From a phage, in the NCBI GenBank assembly GCA_026066175.1, contig GCA_026066175.1_4721.1: a stretch of 64,000 bases of DNA; one strand, 5' to 3'. The notes beneath the pieces are model-generated. The model made no database searches and was not told the origin of the DNA. It saw only the letters and a program-made list of their open reading frames with translations. The translations under genes were made by a program, and so were the position numbers. This document shows, piece by piece, positions 8,570-62,250 of this stretch; position 1 is the first letter of the stretch; each line of letters starts with the position of its first letter.

Positions 8570-8623
8570 GGCGGTTTCCTTTTTAACTAGGATGATTGCA
8601 TATACAGGGTTTAACGGCATAAA

Positions 8624-8641
8624 CCCTCCCCGGAGGGAGGG
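8624..8641 (-). terminator. GC-rich stem-loop with TTTATGCC tail
   Basis: CCCTCCC / GGGAGGG stem; minus-strand tail TTTATGCCG. Confidence 0.5.
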
Positions 8642-9153: not shown

Positions 9154-9398
9154 CTTAATAACCTCACGATAAGGTGCTGTCCACTGGCGTTTTCTTGTTG
9201 TCAACGCGTGCTGTTAATCAGCGGGCAGCAGGTTAGCGTCAGATGTTTGCCCGACATCCACGACAGAAATAAACGGTACTGAAAATACGGTCTCCTCTGG
9301 TTTGGCAATAAACATAACGTTGGATAACAGAACCCATTTCCCGCATCCAACGCGGTAAAGGTGTACATCGTTTGAATTCATATAGTTTCTCAAAGATG

Positions 9399-12267: not shown

Positions 12268-12338
12268 CCTAGCATCCTCTTGTGTTGGATTGATTTCTAA
12301 ACATCTAGGTGAAGCATATTACTGCTTTGCTTCACCTT

Positions 12339-12370
12339 GGTAATATAGCCGTGAAAATTATTGTATTAGC
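12339..12370 (-). promoter_or_regulatory. Promoter-like motif, copy 1 (GCTAATACAATAATTTTCACGGCTATATTACC on the minus strand)
   Basis: Shares a near-identical core TTTCACGGCTATATTAC with the copy at 43614-43645; lies ~70 nt upstream of the minus-strand start at 12267. Confidence 0.45.
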
Positions 12371-16195: not shown

Positions 16196-16220
16196 TTCTT
16201 TTCCTTCTTATCGGCATAAA

Positions 16221-16239
16221 CCCTCCCATACCGGGAGGG
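16221..16239 (-). terminator. GC-rich stem-loop with TTTATGCC tail
   Basis: CCCTCCC / GGGAGGG; minus-strand tail TTTATGCCG. Confidence 0.5.
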
Positions 16240-17229: not shown

Positions 17230-17735
17230 GCTAAGTTTTCCTCGTTTTCTAAGAGTCGATTACGATGACGTTTATACATTTGATGTAACGCTGTGATCTG
17301 ATAAAATTTCTTATAGCGTCTTTCAATCCGCTTCTGCACCTCTTTCCATGGGAGTTTATCGTATTGACGATAACGATGGATTTCATTTAACATGCGGAGT
17401 CGATCAGGGTCTGTGTTCTGTATCGTCCTGAGTTTGATACGCTGGTAACCGCGTTGTAACCCCGATTCAGAATACGTCACACCGAATTCATCTTGAATTA
17501 AGGTGATGATCTCCCGCCAACGTCGTTTCTCACCGTCGCGCAAATGCACGACCCGCGATAAAATATCGTTACGATTACGATGACTCAGCTTGATATTAAG
17601 CATTGAAGCGATCGCGCTTATCCCTCTCTGACTCCGTCCTAACGCTTCACCGATCTCCTTTGATGTCATGACGCCAGCGTTTCGGCGTATGAATGCGATT
17701 TCGGTTGTTGTATATTCACGGTTACCCACGATCAT
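17226..17735 (-). CDS. HTH/Myb-like DNA-binding protein, paralog 1 of 6
   Basis: YTTTEIAFIRRNAGVMTSKEIGEALGRSQRGI plus C-terminal W..I..I..EFG..Y shared with the five neighbours. Confidence 0.5.
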   Translation of the reverse strand: MIVGNREYTTTEIAFIRRNAGVMTSKEIGEALGRSQRGISAIASMLNIKLSHRNRNDILSRVVHLRDGEKRRWREIITLIQDEFGVTYSESGLQRGYQRIKLRTIQNTDPDRLRMLNEIHRYRQYDKLPWKEVQKRIERRYKKFYQITALHQMYKRHRNRLLENEENLA

Positions 17736-18190
17736 ATCACCTGATAATAATGAAGACGTTGACGTAACGTAATCGGTTTATATTGCTTTCCAAATTCCTT
17801 GTTAATAATAGAAACCGTTTCCTTCCACGTGGGTCCTTGTTCACGTAGTGTTTTCGCCCGCGTTAGCAGCCGCGTGCGTTCTGTGGTGTCATAGCGACGC
17901 AGTCCTAAACGTCTTGCTGTTGCCGCTACGCTGTCACGCGAACGGTTGAGTTGTAGAGCGATCTCTTTAAACGACAACGTTCTTATGTTTTCACTGATAA
18001 AAGCGATCTCATCTTTGGTGTACGGTTTGTTCGTACGAACGGAGGGGAATAACGCAAGTTTATTCTTTATAGCGCTTCTTGAACGATTTAGCTGTTTAGC
18101 GATTATCGCGGTTGATGGACGTGGTATCTGTTCAGCAAGACGCTCCAGGCGCTCAAACTCTTCTTTCGTCCAACGGCGCTTCTGTCCCAT
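17732..18190 (-). CDS. HTH/Myb-like DNA-binding protein, paralog 2 of 6
   Basis: WTKEEFERL...IAKQLNRSRSAI; YTKDEIAFI...KEIALQLNRSRDSV; WKETVSIINKEFGKQY. Confidence 0.5.
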   Translation of the reverse strand: MGQKRRWTKEEFERLERLAEQIPRPSTAIIAKQLNRSRSAIKNKLALFPSVRTNKPYTKDEIAFISENIRTLSFKEIALQLNRSRDSVAATARRLGLRRYDTTERTRLLTRAKTLREQGPTWKETVSIINKEFGKQYKPITLRQRLHYYQVI

Positions 18191-18662
18191 TGGCTACACT
18201 CTCCTTCTTCTTGTTAAGAAACCATCGTTGATAAACAGCATGCTTACTGTAATGTGTACCGAACACCGTGTTCACATGGTCCGCGATCACGCTCCAACGA
18301 TAGCCCTGACGGTGTTGTTCGTCAATGTAGTCCAACAATGTCTGACGGAACGTCTCTGATGTTCGATAGATTTTATTCCGCATAGCAAACAATCGAACGG
18401 TGTCGTACGGTCGATTAAGATCAATAGCGATTTCCTTTAACGTTTTGTGTTTGACGTTATCCCTTAAGTAGTTCAGCTCTCGAGTTGTAAACGGTATGCG
18501 TGTTTGTCGTCGCTGTAACGTCAATCGTCGGATACGGCTTTCGACACTATAGCGAGAGCGTTTTAAACGTTCCGCAATCTCTCTTATTGGCGTTGTGGTT
18601 TCTGTATACAGAAAAACTAACAACGTTATTTCATCGGGTTTCCAGGGCCTAATTTCCTTCAT
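18153..18662 (-). CDS. HTH/Myb-like DNA-binding protein, paralog 3 of 6
   Basis: WKPDEITLL...EIAERLKRSRYSV; FTTRELNYL...KEIAIDLNRPYDTV; WSVIADHVNTVFGTHY. Confidence 0.5.
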   Translation of the reverse strand: MKEIRPWKPDEITLLVFLYTETTTPIREIAERLKRSRYSVESRIRRLTLQRRQTRIPFTTRELNYLRDNVKHKTLKEIAIDLNRPYDTVRLFAMRNKIYRTSETFRQTLLDYIDEQHRQGYRWSVIADHVNTVFGTHYSKHAVYQRWFLNKKKESVANGTEAPLDERRV

Positions 18663-19107
18663 TGATTACTTCCCCTTCTTCCTTATTTCTCTTCTCGTGA
18701 TACCACCAACGCTGACGAACCGCTTGTTCACTCCAATCAGAGTTGAAATGTTCGTTCGCTGTGTTGGTAATTTGGTGCCAACTGTCGCCTTCTTTTAACC
18801 TTTTGTTCACAAAAGCTAAGAATGCATGCGTGTATTCTCCACAAGAGCGTCGTATGCCATGTCGGTACGCAATAGCTCTTAAACTGTTTGGATCGCGACC
18901 TAAATCTCTCGCAATCGCTTTATACGTTTTTCGAGCAATGTTTGCTCTGATATACGCTATTTCATGTGATTTGAAATATTGATACGCGCGCCGTCTTGGA
19001 ACACCCAGTCGATGTAGTCGTGCTTGAACGGCCCCGTACGTCGTCTCCATGATTTCCGCGATTTCATGAATCTTTAATCGCGGTTGCCGAAAATACAGTT
19101 TCAACAA
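18649..19107 (-). CDS. HTH/Myb-like DNA-binding protein, paralog 4 of 6
   Basis: IHEIAEIMETTYGAV; FKSHEIAYIRANIARKTYKAIARDLGRDPNSL; WHQITNTANEHF. Confidence 0.45.
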   Translation of the reverse strand: MLKLYFRQPRLKIHEIAEIMETTYGAVQARLHRLGVPRRRAYQYFKSHEIAYIRANIARKTYKAIARDLGRDPNSLRAIAYRHGIRRSCGEYTHAFLAFVNKRLKEGDSWHQITNTANEHFNSDWSEQAVRQRWWYHEKRNKEEGEVINEGN

Positions 19108-32768: not shown

Positions 32769-32828
32769 CTCACGATAAAGTAAATAGGATTTGTCGAGAC
32801 GCCCTATTCTTTTATCGTTGGTTTTCCA

Positions 32829-33692
32829 TTAGTAATAATATCTGATACGTTCGGGTTTTGCTAAAACACTCTGTTCGAATGGCCTTACATGTACGCAAAC
32901 ATCGACAGAATAATAGATACTACCATCGCCACACCATCGCATTACCACACATCCCTTTCTTGTACGAATATGGTAAAACGTCCACTGTGTTTGCCAGTTA
33001 TCGTCTGTGGATTCTTCCGTTCTTTCTTCCGCATCAAGAATCTTTTCACCGACAATATCGCTTAAATCACCATCGATATCGCTGAGATATACCGTCTCGC
33101 AACACTCACGGCTGTGGTACATTTCTACCACGTTATCGTCTTCGCGATGAAAAAGGATAGCTTTACAGTATTCCAGCTGTTCCTCGGTTATTTCTGACGC
33201 GTTAAGTAATTCGTCGTTATCAGTCACCATCCAGATATTTTTGATTACATGCCCGTCGAGCTCCTCCATTGTAAATACCTCGATATTCGGACGAACGGGT
33301 TCAGGTTGAACAATCGGAATACGAACACAACCAATTAAGGCCATCCGTCCTTTCTTTGGTCTAACCGCAAGGTAAGGTGATTTTCTTGGGTGGTTATGCA
33401 GACGTATTTCTAATTCGTCGAATTTAATCCCGTATATACCTAAGAAACGATCGAACAACCGATGAAACTCATCTGTTGCTTCTTCCAACGTTATGGCGTC
33501 TACCGTGAGTTTATGTCCCCTGAACACTCTGGTTAAATCGATAACGTCCAGTGTCTTGAAATATATTTCCGTAAGGGGATGATTTGTATTTTCCAGGTAC
33601 GTAATGGTTCTTTGAACCCAGATTTTAGGCGCAGCGCCTTTAAAACGTTTCAGGTATTTAAAGCGATAACGGGTATGATCTGATGTTATCAT
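32829..33692 (-). CDS. Hypothetical protein
   Basis: Start moved to MITSDHTRY (GAGAGGAGG upstream); the longer ORF would read through the terminator hairpin. Confidence 0.45.
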   Translation of the reverse strand: MITSDHTRYRFKYLKRFKGAAPKIWVQRTITYLENTNHPLTEIYFKTLDVIDLTRVFRGHKLTVDAITLEEATDEFHRLFDRFLGIYGIKFDELEIRLHNHPRKSPYLAVRPKKGRMALIGCVRIPIVQPEPVRPNIEVFTMEELDGHVIKNIWMVTDNDELLNASEITEEQLEYCKAILFHREDDNVVEMYHSRECCETVYLSDIDGDLSDIVGEKILDAEERTEESTDDNWQTQWTFYHIRTRKGCVVMRWCGDGSIYYSVDVCVHVRPFEQSVLAKPERIRYYY

Positions 33693-33766
33693 TTTAGCCT
33701 CCTCTCTTAGCTTCAGAGAATTCTCAAAATCCGTTAGTTTTGATAGACCGAGTAAGACGGCATAAA

Positions 33767-33787
33767 AGCCTCCCTCCATGGGAGGCT
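33767..33787 (-). terminator. GC-rich stem-loop with TTTTATGCC tail
   Basis: AGCCTCCC / GGGAGGCT; minus-strand tail TTTTATGCCG. Confidence 0.5.
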
Positions 33788-33800
33788 TTATTACGATAAT

Positions 33801-35362: not shown

Positions 35363-35414
35363 ACAAACATAACCCTCCTCCTTCCCTTACGGGTTGGAGG
35401 AGGGGATTATGCTG

Positions 35415-35729
35415 TTATTCTGTTTTAGGTGACGAACCGTTCTTCTTGAAGTCGGATTCGTATTTCACATTAGAATCGAGAACCTCACGAACGGTTTTAT
35501 CTGTACAACCGCGGGCGATATACGCGTTCAAATCGTCACGCAATTTACGCATCGTTGTTTTATCCACATCAGAAACATCTGACTTGGTAAGACGGAATGC
35601 AATCGCATCACGAATTTTATTCAACGTTGCTGGATTATTACGCTGCTCTGCAAATACCGCTTTGATGAAGGTACCGCTGTCTTTCGAAGCAACGGCAGCA
35701 TCAAGAATCTCAATATGCTTTTCAGACAT
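35415..35729 (-). CDS. Hypothetical protein
   Basis: 104-aa ORF. Confidence 0.4.
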   Translation of the reverse strand: MSEKHIEILDAAVASKDSGTFIKAVFAEQRNNPATLNKIRDAIAFRLTKSDVSDVDKTTMRKLRDDLNAYIARGCTDKTVREVLDSNVKYESDFKKNGSSPKTE

Positions 35730-35780: not shown

Positions 35781-37094
35781 TCACTTAGACACCGCCATGC
35801 TTCGCGCTAACGCAACGTCGTACGCATCCATGATTGCGTCGCCGATAGCAGTATGACGAATCAACGGAATACCTACGTCTGGATACTCTTTGGTACCCAT
35901 GATCGATACCGGTTTGTCCTGATAGGCTGCGATCATCGAACGAATGTCCTGAACCTGGTTGTATCGGCAGATGGGTTTAAAGCCTGCTTTACGGAACCAA
36001 TACTCTAATTGAGGCCAATCGGTTTCACCGCGGGCAAGATAATAGAAGGTATCTTTACCGTAGTATTCTGTCATTTTGTCACGAATATTGTTAACGAACG
36101 CATTGACTTCAGCAATGGCTTCTTTATAGCCCATTACCTTACCATGCTGGAAACAATAATCACGTGCTTCTTTCGGTGCTTTGGTTTGCCACCACTCTAC
36201 CGTTGATTCGCTGATACGACCACCGTCAGCGATTTGACCGTGCACGTCAGGGAAGACATCAATACGCGGACCGTTAACGATGGATTCTGGATTAGCCAGA
36301 TCGAAGAACACGATACCGATTTCTAACAACACCCCGTTCTTTTCCAGACTAAGGTTCTCAACATCCAAACAGAATGCAGGCTTCTCTACCGCTAATGGCT
36401 CGAATGAATGGTTGCTGGTATCCGACTCAGCTTCGAGTTCGGTGGCGTCCAGATCGGTATCCGCAGGTTTCAGTTCTAATACAGCATTATCAAGCCCGGT
36501 TAACGAAAAATAGTCTTCGAAGAAATCGGGTACCGTCATGCCATGCAAATCGATACCACAATCTTCCATCCATTGTTTAAACTGGCACTCATCGACATCG
36601 ATCGCTAAACGGCATGGTCCGTAACGATTATCCAATGACGCATCAATCCAGAAGAAAGTGCGTATAAGTAAGTAAGGATTATGCTCCGCGATGATTTCTT
36701 GGCTAGCGTGAGCATCATACACCATTACCTGTATTATTTCCTTACGTGTGTTATACGGATCAACCATCAATCGCCGCACGACTTCTCCCAGGTATTCCAG
36801 CGCACGTGTGTACACGGTAGATCCAACTTGTCCGTACGCGCTTATACCCGTCAATAGTTCCTTATAAGACGCGTCTGAAAGCGAAGACGATAGCACACGC
36901 GCCAGCTCGGCATTGTATATACTGCATGATTTCTTCGGGGCGATAGCATCATGTAACGCTTTAATAAACGCTGGTCCATCAATATCAAACAACCATCCTT
37001 GGCGTCGGTGGGCGGTATATCGTAATAACGCACCGATAGCTGCCTGGGGTGGTGTATATTCTTTTTCGTTAATTTCAAACAGTAGTTCGCTCAT
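35781..37094 (-). CDS. Two-domain protein with C-terminal DnaQ-like 3'-5' exonuclease (DEDDh)
   Basis: Exo I FCLDVENLS (D.E), Exo III RHTAIGDAIMDAYD (H...D); ~200-aa N-terminal domain of unknown function. Confidence 0.55.
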   Translation of the reverse strand: MSELLFEINEKEYTPPQAAIGALLRYTAHRRQGWLFDIDGPAFIKALHDAIAPKKSCSIYNAELARVLSSSLSDASYKELLTGISAYGQVGSTVYTRALEYLGEVVRRLMVDPYNTRKEIIQVMVYDAHASQEIIAEHNPYLLIRTFFWIDASLDNRYGPCRLAIDVDECQFKQWMEDCGIDLHGMTVPDFFEDYFSLTGLDNAVLELKPADTDLDATELEAESDTSNHSFEPLAVEKPAFCLDVENLSLEKNGVLLEIGIVFFDLANPESIVNGPRIDVFPDVHGQIADGGRISESTVEWWQTKAPKEARDYCFQHGKVMGYKEAIAEVNAFVNNIRDKMTEYYGKDTFYYLARGETDWPQLEYWFRKAGFKPICRYNQVQDIRSMIAAYQDKPVSIMGTKEYPDVGIPLIRHTAIGDAIMDAYDVALARSMAVSK

Positions 37095-37110
37095 TTTAAC
37101 ACCTTTTTTG

Positions 37111-42879: not shown

Positions 42880-43566
42880 TTAACACATGATTTCACCATG
42901 TTTCTTTTCAACATACGTATAAACATCATCCAAATAAGCGATGAGTTTATCACGATTCGCACAAAGCGATTTGATCGTTGCAATCTCTTTCGTATAAAGC
43001 TGCTGGCCCAGGGCTGGATAAGTAATCCAAGCATAACCATCAGGTGCGAACTTAGAGATAAGGTAATCGGCGGTTTCCTGTAATGCGAACTCCTTGCTCA
43101 TCTGGCCGTAGCGGTGTTCGATAGCACGAATACCAAAACGTTCACTATCAAGACGACCCATATCCGCCAAACGAAGAACCTGAGAAGCCACAGAACTACG
43201 TGGACCGGAATACGAAGCACGATGTTCAGCAATGAGTACGCGTATCTCCTCGATATCTTCCGGTGTGAAAATATGTTGCTCATTACGAAGTAAGATAATC
43301 GACGCGCGAATACCGCCAATAAGGTGGTGGTATGTTCTGTTCTCATGACAAGCGATATCATGCATGAACGCTGCGGTTAACAGACGACGGCGTTCAACCG
43401 GTCGAATGATACCAACCACATCAGCAAGTTCATTTGCCAGTTCGACAACAGCAAGGACATGTTCTTCTTGATGGGCAAGATCGTTCTTTTTAATGTTATC
43501 AATAACTTCAGTGCGTGTTTCCTGAGATAAGAAATTTAAGCAGTCTAACGAAAATAAAGATTTCAT
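42880..43566 (-). CDS. Putative HD-domain phosphohydrolase
   Basis: AAFMHDIACHE with His residues upstream; weak call. Preceded by promoter-like motif copy 2 and AAGAGG. Confidence 0.4.
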   Translation of the reverse strand: MKSLFSLDCLNFLSQETRTEVIDNIKKNDLAHQEEHVLAVVELANELADVVGIIRPVERRRLLTAAFMHDIACHENRTYHHLIGGIRASIILLRNEQHIFTPEDIEEIRVLIAEHRASYSGPRSSVASQVLRLADMGRLDSERFGIRAIEHRYGQMSKEFALQETADYLISKFAPDGYAWITYPALGQQLYTKEIATIKSLCANRDKLIAYLDDVYTYVEKKHGEIMC

Positions 43567-43613
43567 CGTACGTACCTCTTTGACTGTATTAATAAATCGT
43601 GTTTACTCACGTA

Positions 43614-43645
43614 AGTAATATAGCCGTGAAAGGATTTGTATTGGC
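43614..43645 (-). promoter_or_regulatory. Promoter-like motif, copy 2
   Basis: GCCAATACAAATCCTTTCACGGCTATATTACT on the minus strand, ~48 nt upstream of start 43566. Confidence 0.45.
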
Positions 43646-43709
43646 ACGTTCGACGTTCATCGTATTTTATGGATTGTCGAATGACGTCATTTTAAGGGAC
43701 ATCCCCGGC

Positions 43710-43745
43710 CTCCTCCCCAGGAAAGGTGTGGGGAGGAGTTTTTAC
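43710..43745 (+). terminator. Plus-oriented terminator-like hairpin with T5 tail, ~30 nt before the SNF2 helicase start
   Basis: CTCCTCCCC / GGGGAGGAG followed by TTTTTAC. Confidence 0.5.
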
Positions 43746-43772
43746 CAGACTTTTATTAATTCGAGTGCGAGT

Positions 43773-45854
43773 ATGTTAGATAGAATAAATCGCCTAATGA
43801 ACCGGATAACGGTTAAAAATCAAAGCAACAATACCGTGCATGTTGGGGGTATCGATGCCTGGCGTCTTTCGGACGATATCCAGCGAATCTGGGGTACCTC
43901 TCGGTTTATGAAATATATGTTTCGTAACTTCTCTTCCAGCGGTCTTAGCATTCACAACTTCTATCTGCCTGATTTCGTTTATATTCTTGAAACGATCATT
44001 GATGCAAAGAACACCCGCAGCAACAAGCGGATGCTAAAACGCCTTGTTGAAGTCTTGTTAGAAGAAACCTGGCTGCAAAATACCACCATCGAACAGCCAG
44101 CCATTCTTGATAAAGCGCGCATGAAGAAAATGATGACGCTTTCTTTGTTCGATTATCAAGATGAGTATCTCGACATTTATAACCGCAACGTTCCGAAATA
44201 TCGATTAAAAGGCCATGTGTGTGCGATGGGTGCCGGGGCGGGTAAAACAATTACCGCGTTGGCGTTAAGCGCTGCCTTGGGTGTTGACGTCTTCGTGGCA
44301 TGCTGTCCTAAGAACACCATGCGTTCGGCATGGCAATCAGATTTACATAAAGCGCTTGTGGATCCTGCAACCGAATCCGCATTCTGGTCTGATGTGATGC
44401 CCCCAACCCAGTTACAGAAAAGCGATAAATATTACTTCCTGCATTACGAGCAGATGGGATTGTTAAACGAGATCATGCTCAAGCATAAACGCACAGCAAA
44501 ACGTGTGTTGATCGTTGTCGATGAAAGCCATAACTTCAACGATAAGAACAGTCAACGTTCTCAGCGTTTGGTTGATCTGGTACAGACGATGCGTCAAACC
44601 ATGAATGCGGACATACATGTCTTATTTATGTCGGGTACGCCTGTTAAACAGATGGGTTCTGAAATGATCCCATGTTTAGGTTGCATTGACCCGATGTTCC
44701 AAGGCCAGGTGGTTGATAGCTTCAAGTCGATTTACGGTTTAACCAGCAGTCGTGCTAATGATATCTTAAGGCATCGTCTTGGATTCATGATGCATGTCGT
44801 ACCCAAAGAAGCTTACCGTAAGACACGGCCTGAGGTTCAGGACGTATACGTGAAACTGCCTAACGGTAGTGATTACACCATCTCAAGTATCCGTGACGAT
44901 ATGGCGGTGTTTGTGCGTGACCGTGCAAAATACTACAAAGATAACTGGGGGCATTACCGGAAGATTTTCGATGATGCGCTGGATTTCTATCGTCGGACCA
45001 TACGGACGGAAGGTGAGCGTAAAGAACTGTCTCGTTATGAATCCATCGTCGCCCGCTTTCAGAAAGGTTACGATCCTGTCAGGGATAAAGAAGACGCCAT
45101 GTTCTGCAACGTGTTCGAGAAACGAGCGATCATGCCGATTCTTCCTCCCGATTTACGGATTGCGTTCAAAGACGCCAAAAGCGTCATCAAGTACGTCGGA
45201 TTGAAGATTCAAGGGGAAGCCTTGGCAAGGGTTCTTGGCGCAGCGCGCATTCAATGCCACGTTGATATGGTCGAGTATATCGATTTTGAAGGGTATATCA
45301 ACAATGCTGAAGCCAAAGTGCTGATCTTCACGTCATACGTTCAGGTAGTTGAACGCGTTGATAACCTGCTTCGCGATGCGGGCTTCTTACCAGAACCGAT
45401 CTACGGGAAGACCAACAAGAACATTAACCAGATCCTCGCGCGATTACGCGATGATCCTGACAGCGGTCCCGCTATCGCAACCTTTGATAGTTTAGCGGAA
45501 GGGGTTCCTATGTTAATGTGTAACGTCGGCCTTTTCTTAAATAACCCCTGGCGTTCCTCCGATGAGATCCAAGCCATCAGTCGTCTCGACCGTGTTGGTC
45601 AAACCCAACCTGTTCGTATCTATCGTTTCATGCTGGATACTGGCAGCGAAGGTAACGTTTCAACACGAAGCCAAGAGATCATGGAGTTAAGTCGTCAGCT
45701 GGTTGAAGAAATCACAGGTGTTAAATACAATGTGAATAAACAAGCCGACGTTAACCTACAAGAAACGCTGGCTATGGAAGGGTACGATAGATACTTGACG
45801 ATTAATACCCCTGGGTTTGAAATCAAACCGCGTTCCACGTTCTTAGAATGGTAA
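43773..45854 (+). CDS. SNF2-family (SF2) helicase/ATPase
   Basis: Motif I CAMGAGAGKT, motif II VVDESHNF, motif III MSGTPVKQ; start placed at ATG 43773 (MLDRINRL) because the track ORF begins with GTG at 43599 and would translate through a terminator-like hairpin. Confidence 0.7.
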   Translation: MLDRINRLMNRITVKNQSNNTVHVGGIDAWRLSDDIQRIWGTSRFMKYMFRNFSSSGLSIHNFYLPDFVYILETIIDAKNTRSNKRMLKRLVEVLLEETWLQNTTIEQPAILDKARMKKMMTLSLFDYQDEYLDIYNRNVPKYRLKGHVCAMGAGAGKTITALALSAALGVDVFVACCPKNTMRSAWQSDLHKALVDPATESAFWSDVMPPTQLQKSDKYYFLHYEQMGLLNEIMLKHKRTAKRVLIVVDESHNFNDKNSQRSQRLVDLVQTMRQTMNADIHVLFMSGTPVKQMGSEMIPCLGCIDPMFQGQVVDSFKSIYGLTSSRANDILRHRLGFMMHVVPKEAYRKTRPEVQDVYVKLPNGSDYTISSIRDDMAVFVRDRAKYYKDNWGHYRKIFDDALDFYRRTIRTEGERKELSRYESIVARFQKGYDPVRDKEDAMFCNVFEKRAIMPILPPDLRIAFKDAKSVIKYVGLKIQGEALARVLGAARIQCHVDMVEYIDFEGYINNAEAKVLIFTSYVQVVERVDNLLRDAGFLPEPIYGKTNKNINQILARLRDDPDSGPAIATFDSLAEGVPMLMCNVGLFLNNPWRSSDEIQAISRLDRVGQTQPVRIYRFMLDTGSEGNVSTRSQEIMELSRQLVEEITGVKYNVNKQADVNLQETLAMEGYDRYLTINTPGFEIKPRSTFLEW

Positions 45855-45861
45855 TTAAGAA

Positions 45862-45890
45862 GCTCTGCCCGAAGGCAGAGCTTTATGCCG
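45862..45890 (+). terminator. Terminator after the SNF2 helicase gene
   Basis: GCTCTGCC CGAA GGCAGAGC followed by TTTATGCCGG. Confidence 0.6.
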
Positions 45891-45948: not shown

Positions 45949-47403
45949 ATGAAAATCAAACAAAGCTGGAAAGACGAATTACTTGCATTAGTTAACAGCA
46001 AAAACAGTTTACAACTGACATTAGACGACGTAAAGTTTGAATTAACCGAACCGGTAAGCGAAGTGCCCGGAACGGTCGTTGTTACAATCAAACCGAACGA
46101 TAATAGTCGCTACTTTAACGAGCAGTCTCTGACCTACGTCCGTCGAGACATTGCTAAAAACTTCACCGGGATTCCGTTACGGGTTATCGTTAAGCAAGAT
46201 ACCGCTGTAAGGGATATCATCAATACGATTGCTGAACGTTACGGATTGGTATTTGACACAACCGTCGACTTCCTCGAATCAGAGCTGAATAAACAAATTA
46301 CTTTCGCAGACACCGGTATTAAAGACGTTACTGTTCCGGTTGCAAACACGTCTTATGTTTGGGCTGGTAATCTTCAGTTCAATATTGCGAACGATACGTT
46401 AAGCTTGATTACTATCATCAAGAAAACCAATCTTACGAATCTGGTTTATCTGGATGGTGTTGAAGCTGACACATCGGGGTCGTTACTGTTAGCCACCACA
46501 GCACTTGTTAACGATAGCGTAAATAAGCCGATGGTTGAAAACGAAGATATCGTCGATGAATTCTACAACGTTCTTAATGCTCTAGCCAAATATGGTGACA
46601 TAACTGGCGATGAATTAAATGCCGCCTTACATGCGTACGATGAAGCAGAAAACAGGAATAAAACCACGGTAATAACTCTTGGTGATATCCAGTGTGTTGC
46701 AACAGAAAAAGACGATTGGGAAATTGGACGTTTACGCGGTCAGATGGTTCTCGCGCTCAAATCCGACAAACAACCTGAGCGCGAGAACACGTTAAGGTTG
46801 TTTACGAATGGCGGTGACGTCTCACTAACGTTAAACACAATGAAAGATATCAGTATCGATTGGGGTGATGGGAATAAAGTAACGTTGGATGCTGAAGAAA
46901 GATACGCGCACCACACATACGCCGACAATAACCAGTACCAAATCGAAATTGTGTCTCGTACGGACCCAGATGTGCTGCGACCAAATTATATTTCTGGGAG
47001 TGAGATAACCGAAGTAATTCACTGGGCTACTACTTCAACAATAGCTCTGAATTTTGTTGGATGCGATAATTTAGCGACTGTTCCAGATGAGATCCCAACT
47101 TCGTGGACAACGTTGGACAGCATGTTTGAAAGTTGTACGAATTTGAATGATCCGTCTATCTCTAACTGGAATACAAGTAACATCACATCAATGAATGGTA
47201 TGTTCGGCGGATGCACTAAATTTAACCAACCTTTAGCTGCCTGGGATGTCAGCTCAGTAACTGACATTGGTGGTATGTTTGTCGGATGTGACAGTTTTAA
47301 CCAAGATTTAAGTGGGTGGCGATTACCGTCAGGAGTAAACCACACCAATTACGATGATGGTGCTTTCTCGTGGCAGACGGAACATAAACCGACATTCCAG
47401 TAA
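45949..47403 (+). CDS. Fibre / receptor-binding-like protein with C-terminal DUF285-type repeats (paralog of 32-1786)
   Basis: N-terminal ~150 aa aligns closely with 32-1786; C-terminal ITSMNGMFGGCTKFNQPLAAWDVSSVTDIGGMFVGCDSFNQDLSGW repeats. Confidence 0.6.
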   Translation: MKIKQSWKDELLALVNSKNSLQLTLDDVKFELTEPVSEVPGTVVVTIKPNDNSRYFNEQSLTYVRRDIAKNFTGIPLRVIVKQDTAVRDIINTIAERYGLVFDTTVDFLESELNKQITFADTGIKDVTVPVANTSYVWAGNLQFNIANDTLSLITIIKKTNLTNLVYLDGVEADTSGSLLLATTALVNDSVNKPMVENEDIVDEFYNVLNALAKYGDITGDELNAALHAYDEAENRNKTTVITLGDIQCVATEKDDWEIGRLRGQMVLALKSDKQPERENTLRLFTNGGDVSLTLNTMKDISIDWGDGNKVTLDAEERYAHHTYADNNQYQIEIVSRTDPDVLRPNYISGSEITEVIHWATTSTIALNFVGCDNLATVPDEIPTSWTTLDSMFESCTNLNDPSISNWNTSNITSMNGMFGGCTKFNQPLAAWDVSSVTDIGGMFVGCDSFNQDLSGWRLPSGVNHTNYDDGAFSWQTEHKPTFQ

Positions 47404-47422: not shown

Positions 47423-47456
47423 CTTCCTCCCTACCCATAACGGGCGGGGAGGAAGG
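47423..47456. terminator. Probable bidirectional terminator between convergent genes
   Basis: CTTCCTCCC / GGGAGGAAG; GTTTATG on the plus strand and a T9 run on the minus strand. Confidence 0.55.
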
Positions 47457-47472
47457 TTTATGTGGTTATGAC

Positions 47473-48749: not shown

Positions 48750-51011
48750 TTACAATTCGAAATCTTCATCGATAACGCGTTGGGTTAGCACCTTGTCGCT
48801 GAAGAACTCCACCTTACGTTGATGGTATTTCCGATGTGCTTCAATCGACGTACACACCAGATACCAGAACGTGGGTGTCATACCCTCGAACTTCCCTTTC
48901 AGCTGACGTAGTCGACCTAACACCTGAATGTTACCAGTTCTCGACCCCATCGCTAACGTCATGAACGTCATCACCAAGTCAGGAAGATCGATTCCTGTAC
49001 CAGCCGATTTTACCGTTGTCACACTGATATCATTATCCAGTAACACCATGAAATCTTCTTCAGCGGTATAAGGACCTATCTCCAACTCAGGGATACGTTC
49101 ACTTAAGTAATGCGATAACGACTTGCACATATCAACGGTTGCACAATACACCAACATCTTCATGCCTTCCTGATATTGGTTCATGAAACCTTTGATAATA
49201 ACCGTATAGATAAAGTTGAAATAGGCGAGTTTGAGTTGCTTATTCTTCATGATAGACTGTTCGAATACCGTGTGAGAATAAGAACCTCCAAAGCCTTTGT
49301 ATCGGACTTTATCCGTACTGCGTAGTCGATACGTCACCGCATTTACCGCGATGTATTTCTTGTATTCACATTTCGCATAACGTGCTTCTTTCGGATACAT
49401 CAAATACAGCATCCGCTCGATGAACGGATCGTCAGACACCGCCGTTGCCGACAGATAAATGATTTCCGGAATATTCGCGTAACACTTCACTTTGAACAAG
49501 AAATGCAGAGCTTCGTGACATTCATCGTGGATTAACAATCCAATGCCTGTTTTCTCCCAGAACTCGACTGGATGGAAAACATAAGGTGCGACACAGTTGT
49601 TCTTTTCATAATCGGTTATATAACGCTGAAACATGTTCAGTGAGAATAACGCAATTTTGAAATCCAACTCACCTTGTTCTACCAACGTCTGAAATTCCAA
49701 CATGCTGTAACGAGGAATGTCGGGATGCGGTGGGTCAGACTGGGCTGTACCACGTATCTCGATAACATCACCTGGTTCCATACCGAAGAAACTTAGCAGT
49801 GAGCTACGCCATCCAGGCATGTACCTCGGTGACAGAATGATGCCCGTCCGTACACCACGTCGGAAGGTGATCTCCTGCGACATTGCGGTGTTGTGCGTGA
49901 CGATATGGTCTTTAATAACATAAAGGCTTTCGTCGTTGTCCACCGTGATGCAACGTGCCTTCGCTTTCACCGTCGGCACGATGCCGCCAATCGCTAAACC
50001 AGGAAGCGTGTTAACGGGAAGATCATCTGGAATCTCAATGCCGTCAGGAATAAGCTTAAGCAAATCGGAATGGTAAATTAATGTCTCCATCGTGTAACTA
50101 TTGATGGGGCATTTATACGCGATTCCCCCTAACCGATAAGCCAACTCCCAGACCTCGGTCATTATCTGCGAATCGGTGGTTCTGACCGCAAGGTGAGCCC
50201 ACCCTTCTTCAACACGCAGCACGCAACGATCTTTGATGAGTTCTCTGAAACGATCAAGACCCACGAGTTCTTTCGGTTCGTAAAGTCGGATTCTTACCGG
50301 ACGAGATCGTGACGATCTGTCATTAAGACGTTCCATGATTTCACTCGTGCTGAGCACCTTGTCAGGATCCGTGCATTGCCAGAGATGATCACCACACGCT
50401 TCAACCATTCGTCCATCTTCAAAGAAGACAGCGTAAAGCTGAATATCGTCATGATCAAAGATAGCAGTTACGTTCGTCGGTAAACCATCCGCGCCGATGA
50501 CCTCATCACCCACCTGGAGCTCACCAATCGGCTTCCAACCGCTTGGAACCTTAACGGGTGTATGGAGAGCCAATGCTTTCCCAGACCCCGTGCCTGCGGT
50601 GTTTAGGCTCATTCTGAAAGGGGTATCCTTACCCCCATCCATGTACTCCAACCATTCTTGCTGATCTTCACGCCACGGAAACTTCCAGTTCTTCACAAAC
50701 TCCACTTCCTTACCTGGAACCGGATCGTGGTAAACGATTTCCAACCACTCCTTTCGAATTCCTCGAGAAAAGATAAAATCCAAAAACGACTTCAGCTGTT
50801 CACGAAGTAAGTAGACCTCGCTATAATCGCTTCTTGCTGCGGCGTAGGTGTTGATGGTATCGGTGACCATTCTCCGTGTACGAGGGTCGCGTCGTTTCCG
50901 TAGATGCAAACAACGGTCTCGAAGGTAATGGCCAATCAAATGGGCAAATCGAAGTCCGTATCCGCTCAGCTTCATGCCATGCGAGAAGACGTCGATACGA
51001 GCTAACTTCAT
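48750..51011 (-). CDS. SF2 (DExH) helicase carrying an intein-like insertion in motif I
   Basis: Host motifs NTAGTGSGK | T (AGTGSGKT after excision), LLIHDECHEA, YLSATA, SAGTGIDLPDLV; about 229 aa inserted between K and T. Confidence 0.65.
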   Translation of the reverse strand: MKLARIDVFSHGMKLSGYGLRFAHLIGHYLRDRCLHLRKRRDPRTRRMVTDTINTYAAARSDYSEVYLLREQLKSFLDFIFSRGIRKEWLEIVYHDPVPGKEVEFVKNWKFPWREDQQEWLEYMDGGKDTPFRMSLNTAGTGSGKALALHTPVKVPSGWKPIGELQVGDEVIGADGLPTNVTAIFDHDDIQLYAVFFEDGRMVEACGDHLWQCTDPDKVLSTSEIMERLNDRSSRSRPVRIRLYEPKELVGLDRFRELIKDRCVLRVEEGWAHLAVRTTDSQIMTEVWELAYRLGGIAYKCPINSYTMETLIYHSDLLKLIPDGIEIPDDLPVNTLPGLAIGGIVPTVKAKARCITVDNDESLYVIKDHIVTHNTAMSQEITFRRGVRTGIILSPRYMPGWRSSLLSFFGMEPGDVIEIRGTAQSDPPHPDIPRYSMLEFQTLVEQGELDFKIALFSLNMFQRYITDYEKNNCVAPYVFHPVEFWEKTGIGLLIHDECHEALHFLFKVKCYANIPEIIYLSATAVSDDPFIERMLYLMYPKEARYAKCEYKKYIAVNAVTYRLRSTDKVRYKGFGGSYSHTVFEQSIMKNKQLKLAYFNFIYTVIIKGFMNQYQEGMKMLVYCATVDMCKSLSHYLSERIPELEIGPYTAEEDFMVLLDNDISVTTVKSAGTGIDLPDLVMTFMTLAMGSRTGNIQVLGRLRQLKGKFEGMTPTFWYLVCTSIEAHRKYHQRKVEFFSDKVLTQRVIDEDFEL
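49890..50576 (-). mobile_element. Intein-like element inside helicase motif I (protein residues ~146-374)
   Basis: Begins ALALHTPVKVPSGWKPIGELQVGDEV and ends CITVDNDESLYVIKDHIVTHN followed by Thr; removing it restores AGTGSGKT. Confidence 0.55.
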
Positions 51012-53608: not shown

Positions 53609-53720
53609 AATCTCATTTCCTCTTCTCTGTTAGGATAAATGACATGCTGGATAACGTTGCCTTTGCATATATTGCTTTATTTCCGTCAGAAATAACGGAA
53701 AATAAAAACAACGGCATAAA

Positions 53721-53752
53721 CCCCTCCCACCTCCACATGGGAGAGGGAGGGT
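53721..53752 (-). terminator. GC-rich stem-loop with TTTATGCC tail
   Basis: CCCTCCCACCTCC / GGGAGAGGGAGGG (imperfect); minus-strand tail GTTTATGCCG. Confidence 0.45.
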
Positions 53753-53757
53753 GTATG

Positions 53758-54120
53758 TTATTCTACATTATCTTCTACGGCTTCGGATTCATCCGCTTCT
53801 GCGAAGCTTTCCTGAACCGCAGTGGTATCCCAGTTCGCTGCGTAATCAGCCATGGCTTCGCGCAGCGCTTCTTCACCCGCATCACCAGCCAGGTCAAGTA
53901 CAACCAACCCTTGTGCGACGTTCTGCGCTACGGTATCGATAACCGTTGCATCCTCTTCAAAGCTACGTACCGGTTCAATGGTACCAACATCAACAGCGTA
54001 GTTCGTGGTTGCGGTAAGGACAGCAACCTGTAATGCGTTGCTGTCTTCGTCATGAAGTGCTGCTTCAATACCGATTGGACGGGCCAGTTCTTGCAGTGTC
54101 AATTTACGAATTAAGTTCAT
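53758..54120 (-). CDS. Highly acidic small protein
   Basis: 120 aa, Asp/Glu-rich throughout (e.g. EADESEAVEDNVE at the C-terminus). Confidence 0.45.
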   Translation of the reverse strand: MNLIRKLTLQELARPIGIEAALHDEDSNALQVAVLTATTNYAVDVGTIEPVRSFEEDATVIDTVAQNVAQGLVVLDLAGDAGEEALREAMADYAANWDTTAVQESFAEADESEAVEDNVE

Positions 54121-57592: not shown

Positions 57593-57630
57593 CCCTCCCA
57601 CGGCGTAAAGCGGCGGGAGGGCATTTATGC
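57593..57630 (+). terminator. Terminator after plus-strand gene 57234-57587
   Basis: CCCTCCC...GGGAGGG followed by CATTTATGCCG. Confidence 0.5.
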
Positions 57631-57653
57631 CGTCGTTCGATGCTTTTAGCGCA

Positions 57654-62164: not shown

Positions 62165-62218
62165 AACAACCTCTTTTCGCGGTTCCCTGTTAAACGTTTT
62201 CTATAACGCCATCAAGGA

Positions 62219-62250
62219 GGTAATATAAGCGTGAATAATTTTGGATTCCT
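62219..62250 (-). promoter_or_regulatory. Promoter-like motif, copy 3 (degenerate)
   Basis: AGGAATCCAAAATTATTCACGCTTATATTACC on the minus strand, ~55 nt upstream of start 62164. Confidence 0.35.

Follow-up and report, generated by a model that had tools for sequence, protein, structure and literature searches.

What could a terminator-like hairpin be doing directly in front of a gene, where no gene precedes it on the same strand? The question is raised by positions 43710-43745 of the 64,000-nt stretch of phage DNA analysed here (the window). An earlier reading, made from the letters alone (the sequence-only reading), had described a hairpin followed by TTTTT at this place, about 30 nt before the ATG of an SNF2-family helicase gene, and both the sequence and RNAfold agree with it. 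Three explanations had been offered: a transcription attenuator controlling the helicase, the 3' end of a small plus-strand RNA, or an insulator against antisense read-through. The comparative evidence set out below fits the first two and does not favour the third.

By its similarity to known genomes, the window is that of a Goslar-like nucleus-forming jumbo phage of Escherichia coli (Chimalliviridae). It shares 82% identity with Escherichia phage vB_EcoM_Goslar (MK327938) over the alignable 56.6 kb and 86% over 1 kb around the hairpin site, and a metagenome contig, JACXXQ010000003.1 (L080), is identical to it over the compared stretch. Six stretches have no collinear Goslar match (1-1790, 17717-19031, 32827-33710, 36391-37107, 46499-47158 and 49892-50574), so the gene content of the two phages differs there; positions 1443-1765 resemble, at 66% identity and in reverse orientation, a portion of Goslar gp161.

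The hairpin lies in a 206-nt divergent intergenic region (43567-43772), as the sequence-only reading had it. To the left, the region is bounded by an HD-domain hydrolase gene (42880-43566, minus strand), the first gene of a leftward array, whose orthologues carry the Pfam HD domain. To the right stands the SNF2-family helicase gene (43773-45854, plus strand), the orthologue of Goslar gp160 and phiKZ gp203. The order of HD gene, divergent gap and helicase is the same in the Goslar annotation and in the window ORF map, and the window helicase is 92.5% identical to Goslar gp160, with precomputed Pfam matches to SNF2-rel_dom, Helicase_C and ResIII. Its orthologues in phiKZ and 201phi2-1 are annotated as structural proteins or were identified by mass spectrometry. 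Four other orthologues (P0012, P0022, P0039 and P0084; e.g. L114 2001-5135) are about 1030-1060 aa long, their SNF2 helicase being interrupted by a LAGLIDADG_3 (intein-type) domain.

No upstream plus-strand gene is available for the hairpin to terminate, a point made from the letters that the Goslar annotation bears out: from 134,640 up to and including the HD gene (about 8 kb), all genes are on the minus strand, and in the roughly 45 kb upstream of the helicase there is a single plus-strand gene, the small gp145. The divergent region itself does not extend the helicase. The helicase frame is open for 58 codons upstream of the true ATG (43599-43772), across the entire leader, and automatic gene prediction might place the start too far upstream, at GTG 43599. 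Such an N-terminal extension (in-frame open ORF 43599-45854) was ruled out by two separate 1-nt indels relative to Goslar, and is also countered by the Goslar helicase start, annotated at the same ATG. As single-base indels occur in relatives on either side of the conserved block described below, the stretch 43599-43772 is non-coding.

On its minus strand, the divergent region carries an early-promoter-like motif for the leftward HD array (43607-43645), with the core CGGCTATATTAC at 43615-43626. The motif, GTAATATAGCCGTGAAA, occurs in three 39-nt copies in the window (12332-12370, 43607-43645 and 62212-62250), all in the same orientation, with CGGCTATATTAC as the minus-strand core, and all in minus-strand gene regions, which makes the leftward promoter proposed by the sequence-only reading plausible. 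The copy adjoining the HD gene is conserved in all lineages, distant relatives included. Early promoters of jumbo phages are AT-rich motifs of about 10 nt, and the 39-nt motif with its CGGCTATATTAC core is likely the early (virion polymerase) promoter of the Goslar clade. We also noticed a host sigma-70 promoter-like site at 43641-43668. It was set aside because it is a weak match (9/12), is not kept in the other lineages, and phiKZ transcription is independent of the host apparatus.

The plus strand at 43710-43745 reads CTCCTCCCC AGGAAAGGTGT GGGGAGGAG TTTTTAC. The hairpin, which we named HP3 (43710-43738), consists of a 5' arm (43710-43719), a loop (43720-43728) and a 3' arm (43729-43738); with the innermost A/T pair included, the arms are CTCCTCCCCA and TGGGGAGGAG. 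Folded alone, HP3 forms 10 pairs, including A43719-U43729, at -19.6 to -19.9 kcal/mol (RNAfold), and 7 of its 9 core pairs are G-C, as in the stable GC-rich stem-loop of an intrinsic terminator. The U-run TTTTT (43739-43743), the other hallmark of such terminators, follows directly and marks the predicted 3' end of the transcript, 29 nt before the helicase ATG at 43773. The minus-strand side of the stem is followed by GCCGGGGATG, with no T-run, so the terminator shape is oriented to the plus strand alone.

HP3 is more than a chance stem. The window contains about 13 distinct stems that pair perfectly over 9 bp or more, versus 3.4 matches expected from Markov simulations, and such a stem followed by T5 was found in none of 30 simulated windows (0/30). 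The HP3 pattern itself occurs once in the window and not at all in shuffles, and among the hairpin-plus-T-run candidates on both strands HP3 ranks sixth by energy. Its loop of 9-11 nt is longer than that of a typical intrinsic terminator, and HP3 was missed by a standard terminator scan because this was limited to loops of 3-8 nt. The bare observation of the hairpin is not new, since the Goslar GenBank record (MK327938, regulatory feature 142891-142915) annotates the same hairpin, on identical sequence, as a 'putative transcriptional terminator, -14.80'. That automated call lacks the leader position, the upstream promoter motif and the conserved block.

How does HP3 relate to the terminators that this type of phage is known to use? 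In phiKZ, terminators share a CCYCCCC...GGGRRGG hairpin, the full motif being BCCYCCCCHWWDGGGRRGGBYTTATKYYGT, which Putzeys et al. (2024, PMC10914365) obtained from the 3' ends that they mapped. Requiring the fixed loop length, we obtained no match to the full motif in the window, so only its 3' half is informative; this half is enriched, with 9 matches versus 0.73 expected. The window carries a hairpin family with a CCCTCCC-type 5' arm and a GGGAGGG-type 3' arm, in which the C-arm always comes first in the direction of transcription, and most of these hairpins are followed by TTTATGCCG. Members with the (G)TTTATGCCG tail lie at 8614-8641 (minus), 16211-16239 (minus), 33757-33796 (both strands), 35368-35415 (both strands), 45862-45890 (plus), 47423-47465 (plus), 53711-53761 (both strands) and 57593-57632 (plus). 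The family corresponds to the phiKZ-type terminator motif in an E. coli phage, and its tail contains TATG, the phiKZ late start motif; this tail may be a stop signal, a restart promoter or both.

The arms of HP3, CTCCTCCCC and GGGGAGGAG, fit the CCYCCCC/GGGRRGG pattern, with the same polarity as the other window hairpins. Its loop and tail do not fit: the canonical motif has a loop of about 4 nt and the tail TTTATGCCGT with TATG, whereas HP3 has its 9-11-nt loop and the tail TTTTTACCAG without TATG. HP3 is absent from the nine matches to GGRRGGBYTTATKYYGT (at most 2 mismatches allowed), differing from it at 5 positions by eye. Canonical phiKZ-type terminators also stand after genes, whereas HP3 stands before a gene in a divergent region. 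On sequence grounds, we regard HP3 as an atypical member of the phage's terminator family. This membership bears on a further claim of the sequence-only reading, that a GGAGG in the right arm could be a sequestered Shine-Dalgarno sequence. A CCCTCC-type 5' arm paired with a GGGAGG-type 3' arm is typical of the terminator hairpins of this phage, the GGAGG lies 35 nt from the ATG with no start codon 5-10 nt after it, and GGAGG is missing from the corresponding stems of relatives (GTCCGAAGG, GGGGGT); the idea was abandoned.

The sequence around HP3 is unusually well kept. A perfect match of 87 nt to Goslar (43658-43745), in a window that averages 82% identity, starts 13 nt before the G of a TATG motif and stops just past the U-run, so that HP3 itself is identical in Goslar. 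This run is the seventh-longest perfect Goslar match in the window. The longest, of 159 nt (9218-9376), falls in a 252-nt gap between gp098 and gp099 that is unannotated in Goslar; this gap holds a minus-strand ORF of 55-59 codons (MNSNDVHLYRVGCGKW...; candidates 9214-9393) and a strong hairpin (9317-9353), and 9218-9376 is probably an unannotated small gene or RNA.

We then compared eight distinct Goslar-type haplotypes obtained from metagenomes and read-set assemblies. Variable columns number 4 of 83 in the element and 38 of 135 in the flanking non-coding sequence (p = 1.3e-5). The changes within the block are confined to one double change, one inserted A and two U-run variants. The double change, in L023, converts the innermost pair of HP3 from A-U to G-C; the U-run variants are TTTTTT (L122) and TGTTTT (L068). 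Exact-pattern scans of IMG/VR returned Goslar-type contigs only, plus chance matches in coding DNA. The metagenome scan, in which 80 of 93 stretches were listed, contained 7 Goslar-like ones among all stretches screened.

At the start of the block lies ATTTTATGG (43664-43672, plus strand), with TATG at 43668-43671. The late promoter of phiKZ, used by its non-virion RNA polymerase, is TATG with the G as +1; all four bases are required, and the sequence downstream of TATG strongly affects promoter strength. As a sequence, ATTTTATGG matches this start-site motif, which places the predicted +1 at G43671. It occurs once in the window, 39 nt before HP3 on the same strand, and is invariant in all three Goslar-clade lineages described below; the sequence just upstream of it varies. 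A late promoter would fit the helicase, since its phiKZ and 201phi2-1 orthologues are virion-associated.

Helicase orthologues of other genera also begin at divergent junctions. In 201phi2-1 (gp300) and two metagenomic phages, L119 and L120, the helicase ATG is preceded at 25-50 nt by (C)ATTTTATG, and no hairpin intervenes. As this motif stands near the ATG there, it appears to mark the usual position of the helicase promoter, to which the Goslar clade has added a leader. Most simply, about 75-95 nt of structured leader with a terminator at its end would have been inserted in this clade between the gene and its usual promoter.

Alternatively, the bases that stay invariant after TATG could act at the DNA level, as a downstream promoter element, rather than as RNA structure, given the dependence of phiKZ promoters on this sequence. 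This is one form of a broader alternative in which HP3 does not terminate at all, the leader being an mRNA-stabilising or protein-binding structure, or the DNA being a downstream promoter element or operator. Stem-loops at the 5' end are known stabilisers of bacterial mRNAs, and the tail of HP3 is unlike the canonical terminator tail of the phage, both of which speak for this alternative. We nevertheless hold it to be improbable in view of the lineage comparison below, where a U-rich run directly follows a strong hairpin in all three lineages despite total turnover of the stem, and where compensatory changes and G·U pairs indicate RNA rather than a DNA site. Similar hairpin-plus-U elements also coincide with mapped 3' ends in phiKZ (PMC10914365), and eight 201phi2-1 terminators work in reporters (PMC11512511).

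Between ATTTTATGG and HP3, two further structures were predicted. HP1 (43672-43688) is a start-proximal stem-loop with an outer helix (43672-74/43686-88) and an inner helix (43676-78/43683-85), and is built around TGTCGAATGA (43675-43684), a sequence found once in the window and unchanged in every lineage. In the window the outer helix pairs GAU with GUC, and in the L011 and L012 groups GGG with CCC, amounting to two double changes; the register of the inner part is ambiguous in the fold prediction. HP2 (43696-43706) is a tentative small GC hairpin pairing GGG 43696-98 with CCC 43704-06; it is weak and has an alternative fold in the window, and at its position the relatives have GGAC/GUCC (L011) or GGGGG/CUCCC (L012 group). 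Taking together the promoter motif, the terminator and the conservation boundaries, we predict a short RNA of 73 nt (43671-43743) that would double as the 5' leader of the helicase mRNA.

Classical attenuation requires more than a terminator, and bacterial leader attenuators (amino-acid operon leaders, riboswitch platforms) resemble the HP3 unit in having a GC-rich stem and a U-run between promoter and start codon. Unlike them, the HP3 leader has neither a conserved antiterminator nor a conserved leader peptide, and the polymerase is presumably the phage's own. We found no conserved competing antiterminator in the three lineages, in all of which the 5' arm of the strong hairpin is essentially unpaired until its 3' arm has been transcribed. 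A candidate leader peptide ORF, ATGACGTCATTTTAA, has 4 codons and is conserved in neither length nor frame; a leader peptide is also excluded by the length of the G-run, which goes from 5 to 7 in the L012 group, and by 1-nt indels that break the frames. With both lacking, regulated attenuation of this kind is not supported, and constitutive dampening, or control by a protein factor, is possible.

A protein search extended the comparison to more distant helicases, 63% and 56-58% identical to that of the window, whose contigs keep the divergent HD/helicase arrangement. Three Goslar-clade lineages can thus be compared (helicases 56-100% identical): that of the window, L011 and the L012 group. All three share the leftward GTAATATAGCCGTGAAA, then ATTTTATGG, a stem-loop around UGUCGAAUGA, a small GC hairpin, and a strong hairpin with a U-run, the equivalent of HP3. 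The terminator stems themselves are unrelated (CTCCTCCCCA/TGGGGAGGAG, GCCTTCGGACGTG/CATGTCCGAAGGT and GCCCCCT/AGGGGGT), the stem of the L012 lineage being GCCUUCGGACGUG/CAUGUCCGAAGGU and that of L011 GCCCCCU/AGGGGGU, and MAFFT was unable to align them. The U-rich tails of the other two lineages are CTTTTTC and TATTTCTTTATGCCGT, and the T-run after the strong hairpin is found on the plus strand only. Both distant hairpins contain G·U pairs, which on the opposite strand would be C·A mismatches. Within the L012 group (six haplotypes), variable columns number 2 of 106 in the element and 30 of 126 in the flanks (p = 4.5e-7). This pattern, in which layout and boundaries are kept and stems are replaced, suggests a plus-strand RNA whose structure matters, at the limited statistical weight of three lineages; with only three independent lineages found, the covariation has little statistical power.

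The same order of parts is known from related phages. In phiKZ and 201phi2-1, 5' UTR elements consist, as does the HP3 unit, of a start, a hairpin terminator less than 250 nt downstream, and then the gene. Across the phages examined in the phiKZ study, 42 mapped 3' ends lie in 5' UTRs, and one phiKZ terminator, T102, yields an RNA of about 71 nt with more than 90% termination before PHIKZ221 (PMC10914365), close to the 73 nt predicted in the window. In 201phi2-1, 8 of 11 small RNAs are derived from 5' UTRs by the same premature termination, and the eight terminators mentioned above were functional in reporter assays (PMC11512511). Those elements were mapped experimentally, whereas that of the window is predicted, and the window element has no sequence similarity to any phiKZ/201phi2-1-type element compared. 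For Goslar itself, the RNA-seq paper (Armbruster et al., bioRxiv 10.1101/2023.09.20.558163) gives gene-level counts.

HP3 thus ends a conserved block with a TATG-type motif at its opening, and transcript-end sequencing has revealed just such an order of parts in phiKZ and 201phi2-1. The attenuator and small-RNA 3'-end explanations of the sequence-only reading both fit this comparative evidence. With somewhat better than even confidence, we propose that HP3 is an intrinsic terminator within the 5' leader of the helicase message, giving rise to an RNA of about 73 nt and a read-through mRNA. In this proposal, the non-virion RNA polymerase of the phage would start at the G of TATG (43671), and the nascent RNA would fold into the start-proximal stem-loop around UGUCGAAUGA and then the small GC hairpin. 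HP3 and its U-run would halt most polymerases near 43743, releasing the short RNA, and a read-through fraction would continue into the helicase message. The element would set low helicase expression from a late-type promoter, since most transcription would stop at HP3 and the read-through fraction alone would make message; the short RNA would be a by-product or possibly a regulator. The analysis shows the anatomy of the element, its strand specificity and the conservation of its structure and boundaries; the start site, the occurrence of termination and its efficiency are what we infer.

Could the short RNA be a gene in its own right, functional in trans or by protein binding, with most helicase transcription beginning elsewhere? 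The conservation of the invariant UGUCGAAUGA and of the three-hairpin layout goes further than a simple terminator would require, and conserved small RNAs derived from 5' UTRs have been reported in this phage family (PMC10914365, PMC11512511). In the L012 group, moreover, the hairpin is followed by TTTATGCCGT, which would allow a separate TATG start for the helicase there; if it is a second start, the L012 helicase would be independent of read-through and the short RNA a separate unit. A tail like that of L012 also follows window hairpins that have no same-strand gene downstream (47423-47455 and 57593-57632), and for this reason the TATG-containing tail may belong to the stop signal and not be a promoter. 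Against a separate RNA gene, the window and L011 have no TATG or other recognisable start between HP3 and the helicase ATG, the sole TATG overlapping the start codon. No target was found for the RNA either, matches to the invariant 10-mer being at chance level (5 versus 7.5 expected), and Rfam 15 gave only chance-level matches near HP3 (E 2.4-9.5), with none at the gathering score across the window; a tRNA search likewise found nothing. We therefore consider a stand-alone RNA gene unlikely. Similarly doubtful in our estimate is a function for the 73-95-nt RNA as a trans-acting sRNA exported from the phage nucleus, or as a leader bound by a protein of the phage, perhaps its helicase or polymerase, which would make termination conditional.

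The insulator explanation holds that HP3 keeps stray plus-strand transcription, antisense through the HD array, from entering the helicase. Plus-strand RNA arriving from upstream would indeed be antisense, since all the neighbouring genes on that side are minus-strand, and in phiKZ 9% of the mapped 3' ends are antisense to genes (PMC10914365). A terminator-like hairpin is also present in the divergent region upstream of the phiKZ helicase orthologue, PHIKZ203 (210.6-212.8 kb). That hairpin, GGAGCCC...GGGCTCC between gp203 and gp204 (L010 3020-3050, corresponding to phiKZ 213,020-213,050), looks bidirectional, and we found no clear equivalent of the window leader upstream of gp203; TTTATGCC adjoins it towards gp204 and TTTAATG towards the helicase, with TTTATGG further upstream on the helicase strand. 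An insulator leaves unexplained the invariant ATTTTATGG, the hairpins between this motif and the terminator, and the point at which conservation begins, and helicase orthologues of other genera share the divergent layout without any hairpin. Thus, insulation is very improbable as the role of HP3, and a terminator within the helicase leader is the reading that we retain.

This class of element is known from phiKZ and 201phi2-1, and the hairpin was already annotated in Goslar. In the main text of the phiKZ study, where PHIKZ203 does not appear, and in the text of the 201phi2-1 study, where the word 'helicase' does not, no such element is reported before an SNF2 helicase. What appears to be new is modest: a putative promoter-leader-terminator unit before the SNF2 helicase, its clade-wide conservation with turnover of the stem, and the invariant UGUCGAAUGA stem-loop. 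The 'terminator' of the Goslar annotation would then be part of such a unit and not a gene-end signal. Nucleus-forming jumbo phages rely on polymerases of their own for transcription, and little is understood of the way in which they adjust gene dosage. A leader terminator kept throughout the clade, in front of a gene whose orthologues are virion proteins, offers a testable case of control by premature termination in an E. coli phage, and its leader supplies a candidate conserved small RNA.
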